A stretch of DNA of 64,000 bases. It comes from a virus. Lineage: Duplodnaviria > Heunggongvirae > Uroviricota > Caudoviricetes. Position 1 is the first letter of the stretch, and every line of letters begins with the position of its first letter. Below, piece by piece: positions 7,027 through 62,706 of this stretch. The stretch covers positions 32,001 through 96,000 of the IMG/VR virus record IMGVR_UViG_3300045988_163275. One strand, 5' to 3'. The position numbers and the translations under genes were made by a program. The notes beneath the pieces are model-generated. The model saw only the letters and a list, made by a program, of their open reading frames with translations, had not been told where the DNA came from and did not search any database.

Positions 7027-7293
7027 CTAGGTGAGTTTGAAGTCGTCTATGTCATCAACAAACTCCATATACCTGGCTTCGACACTCGACAATCTGATCA
7101 GATACGCAAGCCCGTAACTTAGTGAAGTGGGTTGCTCCAGCACAAATTCGAACCCATCCTCATGCGTTTTACCAAGCCAGAACCCCCCACCGTATTCTTT
7201 TTCACGTTGGAAGAAAACGAACTGTCCGGGTATTAGGTGCTTGAGTGCTTCGCCCCTATAGACGATCACATATTTAGAATTCTTGCTGCCCAT
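7027..7293 (-). CDS. hypothetical protein
   Basis: track ORF 7027..7350 starts TTG; ATG with GAGG SD at 7291-7293; start uncertain. Confidence 0.4.
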   Translation of the reverse strand: MGSKNSKYVIVYRGEALKHLIPGQFVFFQREKEYGGGFWLGKTHEDGFEFVLEQPTSLSYGLAYLIRLSSVEARYMEFVDDIDDFKLT

Positions 7294-7381
7294 TGCTCGC
7301 CTCGCAATACTGCACATATAAACAGTGGTATTTATTACGGTACTGGTCAACTTTACGGGTTAATTGAATAACAAGATGGTG

Positions 7382-31996: not shown

Positions 31997-32013
31997 TATT
32001 TTTGCTGTTAATA

Positions 32014-51100: not shown

Positions 51101-51656
51101 ATGGGGTAGGGTGCGGATAAACCACGCTGTAGAAGTTATCGCGACCGCCAGCTGTGACCAGCGTACCGATAATTTTTGCGAAGTCCCGGCGCTGGAATAC
51201 ACTGCCAATGTCGGACGTCAGCAGGATGATGTTGCCTTTGGCATATGCGGCTGCCAGCTGCTCAAGCGCCAGACGCGGGACAAAGTAGAATTGCTCGCGC
51301 TTGTTCGCTAAGGTCATCAGTTCGCACACGTCGCGATAACCTTGTTCATTCTTTATCAGTGCCGTGAAGCAGTAGCTGCGATCACGAACTAATGATTCCA
51401 TACATCTTCCTGACTCTTTCGCCAAGCGAGCGCGGTGCTCGTATGTCGGATCGTCGACAACATTCAGCTTAACGCCACAAATTACCGACATGTCGTCGCC
51501 AGCGGCACGTTGCAGAGGGATTACACTGGCAATATTCATGCTGTCGGCGGAAATGACAGCGGTGTAGCCAGCGTCTCTCGCGATTTTCACCGCGTTTTCT
51601 GCTTTTAGAGCTGACTCTCCCAGGGAGAAGTCAGTTCTGACCATCAGAGCCTTCAT
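48150..51656 (-). CDS. dnaE: DNA polymerase III alpha (DnaE)-like replicative polymerase
   Basis: N-terminal PHP-like region; GYFLMVRDLMNHSRETGIPVGPGRGSSAGSLVAWCIGITNVDPIRHGLLFERFINPERLDLPDADLDF matches DnaE palm block; 1168 aa. Confidence 0.9.
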   Translation of the reverse strand: MKALMVRTDFSLGESALKAENAVKIARDAGYTAVISADSMNIASVIPLQRAAGDDMSVICGVKLNVVDDPTYEHRARLAKESGRCMESLVRDRSYCFTALIKNEQGYRDVCELMTLANKREQFYFVPRLALEQLAAAYAKGNIILLTSDIGSVFQRRDFAKIIGTLVTAGGRDNFYSVVYPHPTPFYDQINVRAMKVASALKIEPVAFYPAYYEAIDDADIKDIAHMVTNNIKIDQPHRLRIPHQRDNAVNGRRHLLEALKAFSVRMGVPVTAAMASTTQDTIIEACTWRWHELPPALPKMADDEPATLLKLAVAGLRKRLTTKEFGYTPPASEHRVYVERLKYEMDTLTRLGFCGYFLMVRDLMNHSRETGIPVGPGRGSSAGSLVAWCIGITNVDPIRHGLLFERFINPERLDLPDADLDFSQARRHEVIEYLNERYGEDYVAGIPNFTYLGAASALRDTARIYGVDAADMAVSKEFKNLEDDSLSLEELREQLASLDKYATKNPEAFKAACKLQSLMRGFGRHAAGMIVAGVPLVERTPVELRGNARCIAFDKRYCEAMGLIKLDVLGLATLDLLDSAKRYIKESTGEDINLDAIPLDDRKVLDGFAAGYTQGVFQLESGPMRKLLKDLGGGIEPMSFKTVVATTALFRPGPIQSGMLDDYVSVAKGFMAPHSIHPRLEEVTRETNGVLLYQEQIMQSSRVLAGFSMAEADALRSAIGKKNMDKMKAIGSDFVERAQAGWVTLSLKNGGTVEVHKHAKLDCSDGKRRSYSEAISDGIDYVEIVSEQEGLSKEKAQEIWDAFEKFGGYAFNKSHSVAYSLISYQSMWLKTHYPAEFFAAALTILGEDKHQGLVKDALTYGIRVLPPDVNVSSNRIEIRTLEDGSQVLYAPFSAVKGCSENGCQAIMRAREKVGGKFESLEQFEEAVEKRACNSRVRESLQRVGAFASIESGSLPATDPERLRDQAELMGNLVIDAVKASRPFEMNPKRSAEVNALMTRMAAEMGLGDDLIRPSIGIKPKIMVILDNANGNDGRTGYFMENGYDDFKAKLLTAGDLRMGDLYVTGVCKKVKDKEKDYTKDEIGQFTDFMREEINLVRPTYVLTCGSRATSLFNNKSKPSDLVGRKEYLPELDATVFYGFNPNILYFRPEEGERLEAILTDIAETINK

Positions 51657-55426: not shown

Positions 55427-55460
55427 TGTTTTCTGATGTGCGTAATTTATCACTGTACGA
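55427..55460 (-). promoter_or_regulatory. leader motif A copy
   Basis: TAAAACAATTTGTTTTCTGATGTGCGTAATTTATC upstream of 55399. Confidence 0.5.
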
Positions 55461-55511
55461 ACAGGCATCTAATCTGTTCGTACAGGCGCTAGAGAGGATG
55501 GGAGGGGGGTG

Positions 55512-55724
55512 TTAAATTGTGCGGACGGCTACTGAACCGCAGCCGGTATTGATGAGAGTGAAGCACTTGCCCTTTAGCTCAAAGATGTATGCGGTTGCGT
55601 CTTTCATGCCAAGTAACAAAGACTTTGTTGGCAGTTCAGTGAGTATGGCTGCTGCCCCGTCAGCGTCAATTGAAACCGTATGTCCGACCTTAAGGGCGAT
55701 CAAATTAGAAGTTATTTTTTTCAT
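55512..55724 (-). CDS. hypothetical protein (70 aa)
   Basis: ATG 55722-55724; weak SD. Confidence 0.35.
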   Translation of the reverse strand: MKKITSNLIALKVGHTVSIDADGAAAILTELPTKSLLLGMKDATAYIFELKGKCFTLINTGCGSVAVRTI

Positions 55725-55980: not shown

Positions 55981-56370
55981 ATGGCTACCAACGAAATAAC
56001 AGAAGCTAAAGTAGGTCGCTATGCTGCTTACATTGACGCTTTAATCGCGATTTCTCCGAAAAGCCAGGCGACCATCGCGAAAGAAGCAGGCTATAAAAAT
56101 CCTAACAATCTTTCACTTATCAAGAGCGGCAAAATCCCGCTTCCGATCGACAAGGTCAGAGCGTTGGCTAAAGCATTGGATGCCGATTCGGTCCGATTGA
56201 TGCTAATGGTGCTGGAAGAGCGTCATCCAGAGCTGTTAGCGTTTTTTCGCGACGAAGGCACAGCCCCTCTGACTAAAGATGAAAAACTAGTTCTGGAAGC
56301 CTTCCGTCGACGTTTCGGTGACCAACGTGGTGCGTCGGAGCGGGTTGTTGAGGCAATCAAGTCGCTATGA
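55981..56370 (+). CDS. XRE-family helix-turn-helix transcriptional regulator (candidate repressor)
   Basis: SQATIAKEAGYKNPNNLSLIKSGKIPLPIDKVRALAKAL; divergent from lytic-type operon, convergent with recombinase. Confidence 0.55.
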   Translation: MATNEITEAKVGRYAAYIDALIAISPKSQATIAKEAGYKNPNNLSLIKSGKIPLPIDKVRALAKALDADSVRLMLMVLEERHPELLAFFRDEGTAPLTKDEKLVLEAFRRRFGDQRGASERVVEAIKSL

Positions 56371-57468
56371 GAAATTTACACGGATTAGCTCAGTAGCGAG
56401 TCGATCTCCCTTGAACTTATGATCTATCTCCTCTAAATCCTGTTTCTCTACGATTGATGCGATGTACGCCGAAAAACTGTTTAAGGCGTCTCGCATCTCG
56501 TCTATATAATCGTGTCGATCGTATACTCGATCTATCCCCTCAAGACTGTGGTTCATAATTTTGCGGGATACCTCCTGACTTATGCCTAACGCGGGGAAGT
56601 AACTACGCGCAGTACGACGCAAATCTCGGGGGGTAAATGGCTCAAGCTCCATCAACTCTGGACGTTCTAAAATCCTTCTCAACGCCTGTGATATGGCCAC
56701 CTTAGACATTGGCACATCCTCACCCTGTTTCTTGTTTGAAGGAACAAGCCACTGGCTGCCTTTTCCGTATTTGATCAGCTCCTCAACACATTTGCGCATT
56801 AGCGGGCTTAATGGTAACGAGTGCTGGCGAGCCGATTTATTCCTCGTTCCTTGATTCCATAAATTATATTCGAGGTTGAATTCTGATCTTTTAGCTCGGA
56901 GCACTTCATCTGGTCGTCTGGCCGCTACAAGGCATAATCTGGCCGCCCACTTTGTACCCTCACATACGTTGAAGTAGTCCCATACATTCCAAAAGACCCA
57001 GACCTCTGCGTCGGTCAGTTTGCGCTCGCGCGGCGTGGGCTTCGCGCCACCGGCTACTCTGTTAAGCGACATATCGTTCAATGGGGATGTATCAATTAAG
57101 CCCTGAAATGCACACCAACTGAGAAACTGCTTCATCAGCGAGAACACACGTCTGCCCTGGACGATCTTACCTTCCAGTATCAGTGGGTTCACCAGCTGGT
57201 TGACCAAGACCCTACTTATATCACTTACCTTTACATCAGAGATATGCGGCATTACATGTATCAAAACACAATGAACGGCTATTTCAGGTCGACGCCTCGT
57301 TATCAGTAAAGATAAGCGAGTGAATAACATGAAGGCAGAAGAAAACGACATGTCTCCGTCGAATTTGGCGGTCGACACTGCCGACAAACCGGAAGCGCGT
57401 TCGAGGTACTCGATGGCTTCCCGAGAGGTATTTTCTGCTGCGCGTGCTTTATCAAAGGTGTTTTTCAT
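56365..57468 (-). CDS. tyrosine site-specific recombinase / integrase
   Basis: FTPRDLRRTARSYF and VYDRHDY C-terminal catalytic-region motifs; 367 aa. Confidence 0.8.
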   Translation of the reverse strand: MKNTFDKARAAENTSREAIEYLERASGLSAVSTAKFDGDMSFSSAFMLFTRLSLLITRRRPEIAVHCVLIHVMPHISDVKVSDISRVLVNQLVNPLILEGKIVQGRRVFSLMKQFLSWCAFQGLIDTSPLNDMSLNRVAGGAKPTPRERKLTDAEVWVFWNVWDYFNVCEGTKWAARLCLVAARRPDEVLRAKRSEFNLEYNLWNQGTRNKSARQHSLPLSPLMRKCVEELIKYGKGSQWLVPSNKKQGEDVPMSKVAISQALRRILERPELMELEPFTPRDLRRTARSYFPALGISQEVSRKIMNHSLEGIDRVYDRHDYIDEMRDALNSFSAYIASIVEKQDLEEIDHKFKGDRLATELIRVNFS

Positions 57469-57493: not shown

Positions 57494-57513
57494 TACTGTA
57501 TATATAAACAGTA
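57494..57513. promoter_or_regulatory. LexA (SOS) box
   Basis: TACTGTATATATAAACAGTA = CTGT-N8-ACAG with AT-rich spacer, ~26 bp upstream of recombinase ATG. Confidence 0.65.
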
Positions 57514-57640
57514 TATTAGGCATAAGTTTTTGTATGATCAACCATAAAATAGCCTGTTTTATACAATGATTCCATACTTAATAGGTATGGAATCATTTAA
57601 GGACGGAAATTTAAATTCTGAGATTTTATTAGCGTGATTG

Positions 57641-58051
57641 TCACGGATTAGTGAGAGCTTGAAATGCGGCGGCGTATGCAGCGATATCGGCCATAATTTT
57701 TGGATCTTTCGCAAACTGATGTGCGTTGTTAGGGAAGATTGCCAATAGGCTATACACATCTTGGAAATGTGCATGTTGACTGTAAACGAGTGCGCGGTCG
57801 CTTGTGCAATTGAATCTGTTGCGGCTGCTGGTTCGTTCTTGCTTCGTGAGCAAGAGATGAACGTGATAAACGCGGGAGGACACAATAGCACCCGGAGCCG
57901 TATACGGGCCATCTTTCCCGAATACGGTTGGGTACATGCCTTGTTTAAGCGACGTGAAATCGTTGAGTAACGTGATCTTTAAATCAGGCTTTATATCGAA
58001 GGTCGGCTGTAAAAATTGGGCGTAACTATCACTGTTCCATGTGACCTTCAT
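57641..58051 (-). CDS. YafO-like toxin candidate
   Basis: VFGKDGPY ... RVYHVHLL ... ALVYSQHA ... LLAIFPNNAHQFAKDPKIMADIAAYAAAFQ follows the YafO pattern as recalled; SD inside 3' end of upstream gene. Confidence 0.5.
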   Translation of the reverse strand: MKVTWNSDSYAQFLQPTFDIKPDLKITLLNDFTSLKQGMYPTVFGKDGPYTAPGAIVSSRVYHVHLLLTKQERTSSRNRFNCTSDRALVYSQHAHFQDVYSLLAIFPNNAHQFAKDPKIMADIAAYAAAFQALTNP

Positions 58052-58060
58052 CGATCAACC

Positions 58061-58669
58061 TCAATGGAATGAGAAGTTGGCGAAGACGTCCTCATCGATG
58101 AGGCCAGTCTGCGATTCGATGACGTCTACGTCGTTAAAACACTGATTTAAAATCAATAGCAGATCAGAGATAGCCAAACGATACTCAGTTACAGAATCGC
58201 TCAGGCGTTTCAAGTAGGGATGAGGTTGCTCAGAGTCACGAATCAACTTGTTAACGAATCCCTCCAAACCACGAATGGTCAGGTCAACGTTCTTCAATTC
58301 TTCGTAACGGCTTTCACCGAAGCTGGTGCGAATCTTTTCCGCTTTCCATCCAGAGATGGCATGAGCCAGGCGAACGTGTTTCGCCGTCAATTCTGCGAGC
58401 TTGCTTTCGATCTCCGCCAGCTGCGCCGCATCGCTGTTCTCTTGAACAGGTATACCTGCGGTTCTCACATAGGCTTGTTCTTTGAATCCAGCAAATTTCG
58501 CAGAGTGCTTCACCGTGCCACGGAAGCGTCGATAGCCAAGCGGCTCAATAAAGGCACGCCCAAATTTAGCTTTAGGCTTTGCAGTTGAAAAGCGCGAGGC
58601 GTTAGAGGTCACAGTAGCAAGGGCATTGCTAATGACACTCATATCTTCCAGGCAATTTTCTAAACGCAT
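58061..58669 (-). CDS. hypothetical protein (202 aa); possible antitoxin partner
   Basis: ATG with AAGAGG SD; ends 10 nt before toxin ATG. Confidence 0.45.
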   Translation of the reverse strand: MRLENCLEDMSVISNALATVTSNASRFSTAKPKAKFGRAFIEPLGYRRFRGTVKHSAKFAGFKEQAYVRTAGIPVQENSDAAQLAEIESKLAELTAKHVRLAHAISGWKAEKIRTSFGESRYEELKNVDLTIRGLEGFVNKLIRDSEQPHPYLKRLSDSVTEYRLAISDLLLILNQCFNDVDVIESQTGLIDEDVFANFSFH

Positions 58670-58764
58670 AAAACCTCTTAACTACTCAATGGCTCGTAAC
58701 TAAGTGTACGCTGTGTTGATGAAAGCGACAAATAATAAACGGCCCCAAAAGGAGCCGTATTGTA

Positions 58765-59010
58765 TTACAGAGTGCTCGCAAAAGCAGCAAATTCTGTATA
58801 GCCGCCGATAGGATCACCATTAACGAACACCTGCGGTATGGTTTCCACCGGTTTGCCAACCAGGTCGCTCAACTTCTCTTTGTCGATGCCGGCAGACACA
58901 ATATCGATGTATTCGTAATCGCCAAAGCCGTGGCCGTGCAGCTGCTTCGCCAGCTCGACCGCACGTTTGCAGTATGAGCAATTATCGCGTCCGTAGATAA
59001 CGACCTTCAT
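58765..59010 (-). CDS. glutaredoxin-like protein
   Basis: VVIYGRDNCSYCKRAVELAK with CxxC site and C-terminal VFVNGDPIGGYTEF; ATG overlaps PhoH-like stop. Confidence 0.8.
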   Translation of the reverse strand: MKVVIYGRDNCSYCKRAVELAKQLHGHGFGDYEYIDIVSAGIDKEKLSDLVGKPVETIPQVFVNGDPIGGYTEFAAFASTL

Positions 59011-59630
59011 CACTTCGCCTCGTGCAGCTGCTGCTTGAGAAGATAGCCTTCCAGCGGCCAGATTTTGGCAATCGCGTTCTGACGTGTAATTTTACGCCCG
59101 ATCTCCGGGTCAAAGTTCTCCGGGCTGGCGCACGCAGACTCGCCGGTTACGGTAAAGCCGTTCTTGGCCACCTCTGGCTTTAAGCAATATTCAAGGAATG
59201 AGCCACCCAAACGCTTCTGTAGCACGTCATAGACGGGCCGGAAGAACGGAGCGAACTTCTCGCTCATGTCGCCCGGAAGGAAGCCCAGATCTTCTTCTGC
59301 TTGCAATACCGGACGCGTCACGATGATCTTCCCGACTTCCTTATCCAGCAGACGCTGCGCTGCGACGGCAGCAGCCAGGTAGGTTTTGCCGCAGCCGGCT
59401 TCACCAGTGGCGAACGTCAGAGATTTGGTGTCGAGGGAGATAAGATAGTGGGCCTGGGCCTCGTTTCGCGCTTCGATGGGAGAGTTGTCGCGTTTAGGTT
59501 TTGGTGGCAGAGCAGGGGCGACAGCCAGCTCGTCAACGATGATTGTGTCAATTTCGTAGCCGTGGATGCGTGGCTTTGACTTCAGTGCCTGACGAGCTGC
59601 GCGACGCGCCTGTTTACGTTTGTTTCCCAT
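59010..59630 (-). CDS. PhoH-like P-loop ATPase lacking the usual C-terminal half
   Basis: FATGEAGCGKTYLAAAVAAQ ... IIVTRPVLQAEEDLGFLPGDMSEKFAPFFRPVYD; ATG 59628-59630 with AAAGGA SD. Confidence 0.65.
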   Translation of the reverse strand: MGNKRKQARRAARQALKSKPRIHGYEIDTIIVDELAVAPALPPKPKRDNSPIEARNEAQAHYLISLDTKSLTFATGEAGCGKTYLAAAVAAQRLLDKEVGKIIVTRPVLQAEEDLGFLPGDMSEKFAPFFRPVYDVLQKRLGGSFLEYCLKPEVAKNGFTVTGESACASPENFDPEIGRKITRQNAIAKIWPLEGYLLKQQLHEAK

Positions 59631-59676
59631 ATTGAGTCCTTTCAAGTGAGTAACTGAAAGAACTATACCGACAAAT

Positions 59677-59697
59677 AATAGGTAAGTCATTACCTAT
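59677..59697. promoter_or_regulatory. palindromic motif B copy
   Basis: AATAGGTAAGTCATTACCTAT 47 nt upstream of PhoH-like ATG. Confidence 0.5.
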
Positions 59698-61503: not shown

Positions 61504-62233
61504 ATTTTTCGCGGCGGTACTTGTTCATGGACAACCAGGCAACCAAGAACTTTCCCGCAACTTGCACTTTACGTTAGTGCCAGACGAGGCTTGTGGCTCG
61601 CTCACATAGAGCGAAGATCTGGAATCCTTCTCGGCTGTTGATGGCCGCCAGACTCTTCGATCTTATTGGATGTATGGAATCATCCATGTTGTGAAACCAG
61701 GGGCTACATAGGCAACAATGATTTCACCAGAGGGTTAAAGAATCCTGCTTTCACAACGTTGAGGCCACTGAACCGATTTATGTTCGACCCAACATATTGA
61801 TCAGTCACTACAGCTCTGTGGAATCACCTGTATGATTAAAAGAAAAACAGTGACCTCAACGTTGTGCGCTGGCTAACCAAGCCAGCCGGGTTACGTCGCC
61901 GCTTTTAACCCAAGATTAAACGACATAAGTAATGGAAATGACGTAACAGGATGGACGGTCAGCTGGCTGAAACCGGGATGATGGAATGGAATGAGGAAAC
62001 CAACCGCCCATCCTGTTACTTCATCGAATAGGGCATGGGTGGTGCAACATGCCCTATCCTGCGTTCTGCAATCACACTCGCTCAGTGTGTCCCATTTCGG
62101 TGACGAGGCTGGAAACTGACCTCGCTGGTGTTTGGCTTCTTAGGCTACTGCCAGGTATGCATCTTCGTTTGCAGTTATATTTAACGTTCAAACAGTCGCA
62201 TCTCAACGAAAACAAAGTGATCTTATACATATT

Positions 62234-62557: not shown

Positions 62558-62706
62558 TTTCGCACTCCCGTCTCGTGAACAACCCGATACACACGCTTAC
62601 CGACACGAAGTGTTTTGGTTTTCAGTTCCTGCTGGACCAGGGCGCGGCAGATTGCGAGGCCGAGACCCACGCCACCAGTGAATGATAAAATGATGTATGG
62701 AATCAT
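62554..62706 (-). CDS. hypothetical small membrane protein (50 aa)
   Basis: hand-translated MIPYIILSFTGGVGLGLAICRAL...; overlapping start/stop with neighbours; not in track. Confidence 0.3.
   Translation of the reverse strand: MIPYIILSFTGGVGLGLAICRALVQQELKTKTLRVGKRVYRVVHETGVRK

Follow-up and report, generated by a model that had tools for sequence, protein, structure and literature searches.

Why is a binding site for the LexA repressor of the bacterial host found in front of a recombinase gene carried by a phage-plasmid? The question is raised by a viral DNA stretch of 64,000 nucleotides (Caudoviricetes; positions 32,001 to 96,000 of IMG/VR record IMGVR_UViG_3300045988_163275), termed here the window. 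A predicted LexA (SOS) box, TACTGTATATATAAACAGTA, is located at 57494-57513, next to the gene for a 367-amino-acid tyrosine recombinase (56365-57468, minus strand). The region around the box matches hundreds of ~108 kb non-mobilizable plasmids of Enterobacter, Klebsiella, E. coli, Salmonella, Citrobacter, Cronobacter and Yersinia, among them pHCM2 of S. Typhi and pMT1 of Y. pestis, and also the phages Cyrano and CMS-2020a. Because of these plasmid and phage matches, the window is assigned to a phage-plasmid of the SSU5/pHCM2/pMT1 type, of which it is a piece. SSU5-like elements have been seen exclusively in an extrachromosomal state, and a tyrosine recombinase is among the persistent genes of the SSU5 supergroup (PMC9600943, PMC7969092). 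The answer favoured here, with moderate confidence when taken as a whole, is that the gene encodes a LexA-gated recombinase for the resolution of plasmid multimers.

A LexA operator is understood as a 20 bp palindrome, TACTGT-N8-ACAGTA, whose core is CTG-N10-CAG and whose heterology index is low. A preliminary description of this DNA had pointed to a CTGT-N8-ACAG match at 57494-57513 as an SOS box about 26 bp upstream of the recombinase start. The site is confirmed: it agrees with the E. coli LexA consensus TACTGTATATATATACAGTA in 19 of 20 positions, and the gap between the box and the ATG of the recombinase gene is 25 nt. Taken alone, the 16-mer CTGT-N8-ACAG lacks significance (two matches compared with 0.64 expected, and at least two in 14 of 100 shuffles), and the full 20-mer and a matrix were therefore used; the second 16-mer match, at 58434, is a poor box. 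TACTGTATATATAAACAGTA is the sole site in the window within three mismatches of the 20 bp consensus, and none of 100 dinucleotide-preserving shuffles produced any. The heterology-index matrix, derived from known E. coli sites, is approximate. On this scale the box scores 1.07, which is better than every training site (1.9-11.4), and the next-best site in the window scores 8.8. The box differs by one nucleotide from the E. coli umuDC operator, TACTGTATATAAAAACAGTA. Elsewhere in the window, a weaker SOS-like box, TACTGCACATATAAACAGTG, is present at 7308-7327 (approximate heterology index ~8.8). It lies 15 bp upstream of an 88-amino-acid open reading frame (minus strand, ATG at 7293) that has no Pfam match and may be a further gene under SOS induction, such as one for an antirepressor.

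The box is found in a 172 bp intergenic region between the recombinase gene and a YafO toxin gene, and its position there suggests how it might act. A -10 hexamer, TAATAT, is read from the sequence at 57513-57518 on the minus strand; it overlaps the box by one nucleotide, its final T being the first box base on that strand. A -35 hexamer, TTGATC, is at 57536-57541 on the same strand with 17 bp spacing. As a consensus promoter scan omitted this promoter, phylogenetic footprinting was relied on. Among 73 unique relatives, the -10 positions are conserved at 81-100% and the -35 positions at 84-100%, whereas the 17 bp spacer, the 5′ untranslated region (33-78%) and four central box positions (47-64%) are variable. 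The 73 segments were chosen for the presence of the box, so that conservation of the half-sites within this set is circular, but conservation of the promoter is not. The divergent locus L014 displays the same architecture, TTGACC-17-TTAAAT followed by the box. These features predict a sigma-70-like promoter with the box adjoining the -10 hexamer and spanning the expected transcription start of the recombinase gene, which would fall inside the box about 7 nt after TAATAT; bound LexA would cover the DNA from the edge of the -10 through this start. On the best explanation of the locus, this putative promoter is the only recognisable one of the recombinase gene. A hairpin in the 5′ untranslated region that would hide the ribosome-binding site was considered and rejected, the fold being no better than that of shuffled sequence (z = -0.58). 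A search for known RNA families in the intergenic region gave only sub-threshold chance matches.

The box is present in 16 of the 16 annotated relatives that were retrieved first. As an unbiased anchor for a wider comparison, the perfect inverted repeat described below was used, and seven genome loci and 113 viral-contig loci from IMG/VR were reduced to 104 unique segments of 289 bp. CTG-N10-CAG is kept in 95 of these 104 repeat-containing segments at a distance of 51-54 bp (rarely 60 bp) from the repeat; 29 different box sequences occur among them, and 94 score below 8. The box of Shigella sonnei, ACCTGTATAAGTAACCAGTA, retains CTG-N10-CAG and with a score of 7.1 is inside the functional range. 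Half-sites that are fixed around a centre that is free to vary form the pattern expected from selection for LexA recognition. The distribution was also sorted by recombinase identity: where the enzyme has at least 80% identity to the window protein the box is found in 107 of 107 cases, at 60-64% identity in 0 of 7, and at 55-59% in 9 of 13. The box is a clade-specific addition to an older module and is not universal. A search of the literature on these recombinase genes found no report of a LexA box, and its presence on the recombinase promoter is apparently undescribed for this medically widespread plasmid family, although the regulation itself would not surprise a specialist.

In some relatives the box is interrupted. 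Exactly between box bases 19 and 20 there is a sense-oriented insertion of a group II intron (Rfam RF02005, 186.6 bits; 5′ end GTGCG) and its ltrA gene, with the junction ...ACAGT/ATAAAAAGCG. Carriers are loci L015 (about 590-2499) and L141, on the K. pneumoniae plasmids CP133391 and CP050276. As the intron splits the box in the sense orientation, the LexA-controlled promoter predicted here would in these carriers now drive the recombinase gene jointly with the intron and its reverse transcriptase gene. The palindrome may have served as a stem-loop landmark of the kind used by some bacterial introns. A 404 kb Klebsiella plasmid carries the box-repeat segment in triplicate; the single region inspected consists of an ordinary phage-plasmid backbone and a group II intron.

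Expression data are available for one relative. The E. coli LF82 plasmid, which is phage Cyrano, is ~78% identical to the window over the recombinase gene. A scan of the whole Cyrano genome detects strong boxes at two places only, ahead of the recombinase gene (41044) and, as TACTGTATGTGTATACAGTA, ahead of CYRAN_98 (89275), which encodes an S24 peptidase that is UmuD-like. UmuD is a classic LexA target. Published RNA sequencing (RNA-seq) data (S1 Table of PMC9928086, data set GSE154648) give log2 expression in five conditions, i.e., lysogeny broth (LB), cell-culture medium at 1 h and 6 h, and macrophages at 1 h and 6 h. For the recombinase gene, CYRAN_44, the values are 5.6, 7.9, 6.1, 8.9 and 10.3, respectively, and for CYRAN_98 they are 7.2, 9.7, 9.1, 11.3 and 12.2. 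From LB to macrophages at 6 h the recombinase gene rises by 4.7 log2 units (~26-fold) in parallel with CYRAN_98; for dnaE, the large terminase and the ligase the increase is only ~1-1.5 units. By our own tally, the recombinase increase ranks about eleventh of 123 genes. The macrophage is a genotoxic, SOS-inducing environment according to the authors of that study, and Cyrano is induced by ciprofloxacin (PMC9928086). The divergent cargo gene CYRAN_43, on the other side of the intergenic region, is flat and very high (13-15) in all conditions. As this gene is constitutive and unresponsive, the box would act on the recombinase side only.

The preliminary description had proposed that host LexA controls expression of the recombinase. 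The quality of the box, its place in the promoter, its conservation in 107 of 107 close relatives and the induction in Cyrano all support this proposal, and it is very probable that LexA regulates the recombinase promoter. The palindrome might instead be bound by a protein encoded by the element, or be a conserved promoter or DNA-structure feature that has no repressor role. AT-rich palindromes are common near promoters, and the use of the palindrome as an insertion landmark by the group II intron shows that a structural motif is possible. Nevertheless, conservation follows LexA recognition, in that CTG and CAG keep their 10 bp separation around a free centre; the other strong box of Cyrano precedes a umuD-like gene that is induced together with the recombinase gene; and all hosts concerned are Enterobacterales, which use this LexA motif. 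A ligand other than LexA is therefore considered improbable.

If LexA controls the gene, the next question is what the enzyme does. Identification as a tyrosine recombinase, also made in the preliminary description, holds on the basis of Pfam matches to PF00589 (Phage_integrase, E 6.8e-9) and to PF22022, including a P4-type central domain, and a match to phrog_1 integrase (E 1.5e-46). NCBIfam PRK09692 is hit at E 1.5e-8, with 33.7 bits compared with a cut-off of 434. No variation is seen at R185, K211, R284 and Y316, and H307 is almost invariant; in the catalytic R-K-H-R-H/W pentad, R281 stands in place of the first His, and Arg at this position is also found in one relative that has an arm domain, P0118. 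The N-terminal arm-binding domain PF13356 (DUF4102) is missing from the window protein and from all relatives with at least 44% identity, and is present only in matches of 33% identity or less. As it has the catalytic residues and lacks an arm-binding domain, the enzyme is probably active and of a simple Cre/Xer style. Sequence searches of the PDB gave no relative at the thresholds used, and the IntI models in NCBIfam do not match the protein.

A candidate core site for this enzyme is found close by. The perfect inverted repeat AATGATTCCATAC-TTAATAG-GTATGGAATCATT (13-7-13) is located at 57565-57597, 52 bp beyond the box and 96 bp upstream of the ATG. Its arms (11-13 bp) are identical in all 104 unique segments, in which the flanks fall to ~76% identity. 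The 7 bp spacer (57578-57584 in the window) is variable and occurs as 17 discrete types. There is one copy of the repeat per contig, both in the seven places detected by a scan of one genome per species and in the 113 IMG/VR contigs. The repeat also stays with the recombinase gene where the box does not: in box-less clades it is still beside the gene, ~45 bp from the ATG. A homologue of 45% identity, located in a non-phage region of a 507 kb Pantoea vagans plasmid, has the repeat TGACTCCAGAC-TTATTAG-GTCTGGAGTCA ~20 bp upstream; the geometry is the same and two positions are changed symmetrically in both arms. Repeat-to-start distances thus vary between clades (~20, ~45 and 96 bp), which argues for a role of the repeat at the level of DNA rather than RNA. 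As in systems of the Cre/lox type, the recombinase gene adjoins a single inverted-repeat site with an asymmetric spacer in the range of 6-8 bp, one per replicon. Given a 13-7-13 structure that co-evolves with an arm-less tyrosine recombinase at a changing distance from the start codon, the repeat is likely to be the core recombination site. A function as an intrinsic terminator was considered and rejected, since the scanner does not call the repeat, its stem is rich in AT and neither strand has a T-run directly behind it.

The spacer displays a further peculiarity. Five spacer types occur in both orientations with respect to the recombinase gene (loci L010-L012, L014, L025 and others), the flipped pairs being TTAATAG/CTATTAA, CTACCAA/TTGGTAG, TCTATAG/CTATAGA, CTTACAA/TTGTAAG and CTTCCAA/TTGGAAG. 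Loci L011 and L012 have opposite spacers and near-identical flanks. From the two orientations and these flanks, it follows that the 7 bp centre has flipped repeatedly; hairpin template switching or some activity of the recombinase could be the cause.

Copies of the arm are present at a distance. The 15-mer ATGATTCCATACATC, which consists of the repeat arm plus ATC, has three exact copies 4-6 kb to either side of the repeat, each pointing toward it. One orphan half-site is at 51392-51406 (plus strand), inside a dnaE-like gene and antisense to it; the second is at 61669-61683 (minus strand), ~165 bp upstream of tRNA-Asn; and the third, at 62692-62706 (minus strand), coincides with the start codon of a 50-amino-acid open reading frame. 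No further copies occur elsewhere in the window or in the 108 kb Cyrano genome. Their sequence is unchanged at the syntenic positions of Cyrano, where the flanks have diverged, and a box-less clade has them too. They may represent extra binding sites of the recombinase.

The annotation of the protein as a site-specific integrase would suggest a different use of such a site, in which LexA times integration and excision at a chromosomal attB and the element alternates between plasmid and integrated states. SOS-timed excision is common among prophages, and the nearest recognisable relatives of the protein are P4-type integrases (PRK09692 and relatives that bear PF13356). Yet the arm-binding domain used by directional integrases is missing, and an excisionase gene is not seen nearby. 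In the scan of one genome per species, the seven places with the repeat, one of them on a contig of 169 kb, are single-copy and none is duplicated as attL and attR; neither a chromosomal attB nor an integrated form was found by this repeat scan, in which the gene content of the contigs was not inspected. The literature describes these elements as exclusively extrachromosomal, and the Pantoea homologue resides with its own repeat on a non-phage megaplasmid. A true integrase is accordingly a little less probable even than a ligand other than LexA.

Multimer resolution is the simplest role for the enzyme, because the element is always a plasmid and recombination by RecA makes multimers after DNA damage. 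In the resting plasmid state, LexA on the box would keep the recombinase low. Upon DNA damage, activated RecA would promote self-cleavage of LexA and the promoter would fire. The recombinase would then act at its cognate 13-7-13 repeat, 52 bp beyond the box, and multimers formed by RecA after the damage would be converted back to monomers, as is done by Cre at loxP in P1. A low level of enzyme at other times would limit off-target recombination, an argument borrowed from the integron integrases. LexA binding, the exact transcription start, the repeat as crossover site and multimer resolution as purpose are the parts of this scheme that we infer. Multimer resolution is the most likely main role of the recombinase, at about even odds. 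The preliminary description had suggested dimer resolution or an induction step as possible roles; the former is the better supported of the two, and neither is proven.

The resemblance to Cre and loxP of P1 lies in the combination, on a phage-plasmid, of one arm-less tyrosine recombinase beside one site with 13 bp inverted repeats and an asymmetric spacer. The spacer of loxP differs in being 8 bp in length instead of 7 bp, there is no detectable sequence relationship at the thresholds used, and recombination in the present case is predicted from sequence. Control of cre by LexA is not known. The accepted role of Cre in P1 is multimer resolution and cyclisation (PMC7969092).

Several observations weigh against a LexA-gated multimer-resolution recombinase. 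Repression for most of the time is not an obvious requirement for a resolvase. No natural recombination product at the repeat was found in the loci compared, and a simple lox-like model does not explain three orphan half-sites that are kilobases away. The box is missing in all seven members of the clade at 60-64% recombinase identity and in 4 of 13 at 55-59%; since some clades of the same recombinase family are without it, LexA control is not essential to the module. The promoter hexamers match the consensus in 8 of 12 positions, under the scanner cut-off of 9 of 12, and hence are unlisted by the promoter scan. The rise in macrophages is not SOS-specific, as toxin-antitoxin genes and some others also go up, and expression of the recombinase gene is already higher (7.9) after 1 h in cell-culture medium.

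The genes on the far side of the recombinase raise an alternative in which the enzyme has a lesser part. The local order begins with a CobT-like gene (minus strand), followed by a 70-amino-acid gene in the position of cro (55512-55724, minus strand) and a helix-turn-helix (HTH), XRE-like regulator (55981-56370, plus strand), which matches phrog_8 transcriptional regulator and is annotated in Cyrano as a putative repressor. The genes of the recombinase and the repressor are convergent and overlap in all phage-plasmid relatives, by 6 bp here (56365-56370), by 6-9 bp in relatives and by 32 bp in the box-less clade. Because the two genes converge and overlap, each transcript must enter the other gene in antisense. 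It has to be considered, then, that the LexA-gated promoter is mainly an input of DNA damage to the lytic switch, with the recombinase as a passenger or secondary beneficiary. In this scheme a read-through transcript would run from the recombinase gene, in antisense over the convergent HTH repressor gene, into the cro-position gene and so lead to lytic growth. LexA at the recombinase promoter might even be the damage sensor of the whole SSU5/pHCM2/pMT1 lineage, with the switch operated by transcriptional interference and no need of a cleavable repressor or an antirepressor. Both proposals are judged unlikely.

Part of the evidence agrees with such a switch. SSU5-like elements are inducible by mitomycin C or ciprofloxacin (PMC9600943, PMC9928086). 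The 132-amino-acid HTH protein has no peptidase or autocleavage domain, and apart from that of the umuD-like gene Cyrano has no other strong SOS box. From the recombinase stop codon to the 70-amino-acid gene, including the stretch between the recombinase and HTH genes, no terminator-like site is present. CYRAN_46, which comes next in the direction of the recombinase gene and has log2 values of 4.3, 7.0, 6.0, 8.7 and 10.8, tracks the recombinase profile and is the most induced gene of Cyrano, and in macrophages the repressor of Cyrano (CYRAN_45) declines a little from 1 h to 6 h. On the other hand, the repressor transcript level remains high at 6 h (9.9), and macrophages yield no virions of Cyrano despite the expression pattern (PMC9928086). 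CYRAN_46 probably has its own promoter in the 250 bp divergent region, the status of the HTH protein as master repressor comes from annotation only, related phage-plasmid clades are without the box, and the box at 7308 precedes the 88-amino-acid gene, which could be an antirepressor instead. LexA-gated induction modules are known from other phage-plasmids, such as the antC antirepressor of N15 and the LexA of GIL01 with gp7 (PMC11652158). There, as predicted here, host LexA is wired directly to a promoter of an extrachromosomal prophage; the genes controlled in those cases are an antirepressor or lytic promoters, whereas here it is a recombinase and the link to induction is hypothetical.

On the other side of the repeat is a cargo slot (57598-58760), which extends to the grxA terminator. 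In the window it contains the YafO toxin gene (57641-58051, minus strand) and, beyond it, a gene for a 202-amino-acid protein that has no assigned function (58061-58669, minus strand), the two together occupying 57641-58669; grxA then follows. The YafO-like neighbour named in the preliminary description is indeed a YafO-family toxin, of the type II toxin-antitoxin kind (Pfam PF13957, E 1.9e-22, 79.7 bits compared with a cut-off of 25). As NCBIfam PRK09885 scores 54.5, below its cut-off of 153, the gene is a family member and not an equivalog. E. coli YafO is LexA-regulated through the dinB promoter of the dinB-yafNOP operon. Here, in contrast, the box is downstream of yafO and faces the recombinase gene, and a matrix scan of the window found no good SOS box upstream of the YafO operon. 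YafO is also missing from most relatives; it is variable, incidental cargo that has nothing to do with the box.

The slot differs from one element to the next. Unrelated hypothetical genes occupy it in pHCM2, in Cronobacter and in Cyrano, where it holds CYRAN_43, expressed 723-fold above background; the caf1 F1-capsule operon is found in Y. pestis pMT1, a colicin E1 immunity gene and, in Shigella, a sialate O-acetylesterase are found elsewhere, and there is nothing in E. coli p13P484A-3. Such variability brings to mind an integron-like capture platform, in which an SOS-induced recombinase inserts circular cargo at the repeat and thereby creates the variable slot, caf1 included. The layout is that of an integron (a recombinase gene, a box on its promoter, a site and variable genes), homology between elements breaks at the repeat or at most ~30 bp beyond it, and the spacer types are discrete. 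Against this, neither a second repeat nor a half-site bounds the far end of the cargo in any of the 16 loci examined, each element has a single repeat, the cargo breakpoints are outside the spacer and the protein is not of the IntI type. Variable moron slots are, moreover, common in phages without a site-specific mechanism. Cargo capture is considered the most remote of the explanations discussed.

The integron comparison is still instructive with respect to regulation. LexA control of integron integrase promoters (PintI) was reportedly described by Guerin et al. in 2009 for class 1 and Vibrio chromosomal integrons. The closest precedent for the arrangement described here is this control of integrase promoters as presented by Cambray et al., 2011 (PMC3108266). 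In both systems a LexA box (here a predicted one, at a predicted promoter) overlaps the promoter of a tyrosine recombinase of a mobile element, with the site or candidate site just beyond and variable genes further on, and in both conservation of the box tracks an intact recombinase. The differences are that integrons have enzymes of the IntI family and attI/attC sites, whereas here the enzyme is of another family, the candidate site is double-stranded, lox-like and 13-7-13, no second sites bound the cargo and the carrier is a phage-plasmid.

Few large plasmids of Klebsiella, E. coli, Enterobacter and Salmonella are as common as the SSU5-like phage-plasmids. If the only site-specific recombinase of these elements is gated by LexA, their recombination state would be altered by SOS-inducing antibiotics, be it in multimer resolution, stability or possibly induction, and SOS control of mobile-element recombinases would reach beyond integrons. 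The module itself is compact, consisting of the recombinase gene, a promoter with predicted LexA control and a 33 bp site, and it represents a candidate for a new lox-like pair. It borders the cargo slot in which Y. pestis has the F1 capsule operon. In practical terms the gain would be modest, a defined piece of regulatory wiring together with a candidate pair of recombinase and site.

Two minor features of the surrounding sequence can be added. Between the 70-amino-acid gene and the CobT-like gene, at 55453-55485, there is a perfect 12 bp inverted repeat, CTGTACGAACAG-N9-CTGTTCGTACAG. The Cyrano RNA-seq signal drops ~30-fold across the equivalent point (CYRAN_46 at 10.8 compared with CYRAN_47 at 5.9), which points to a terminator or attenuator, even though a T-run is lacking behind the repeat. 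Further along, in a 226-amino-acid open reading frame at 59010-59690 (minus strand), PhoH is represented by its N-terminal half (profile positions 2-101 of 205), which is joined to a C-terminal part from the Gp49 family (35-82 of 82). In relatives, phoH, a 67-amino-acid gene and gp49 are three separate genes, and an in-frame deletion appears to have fused the phoH/gp49 region into a single open reading frame in the window.

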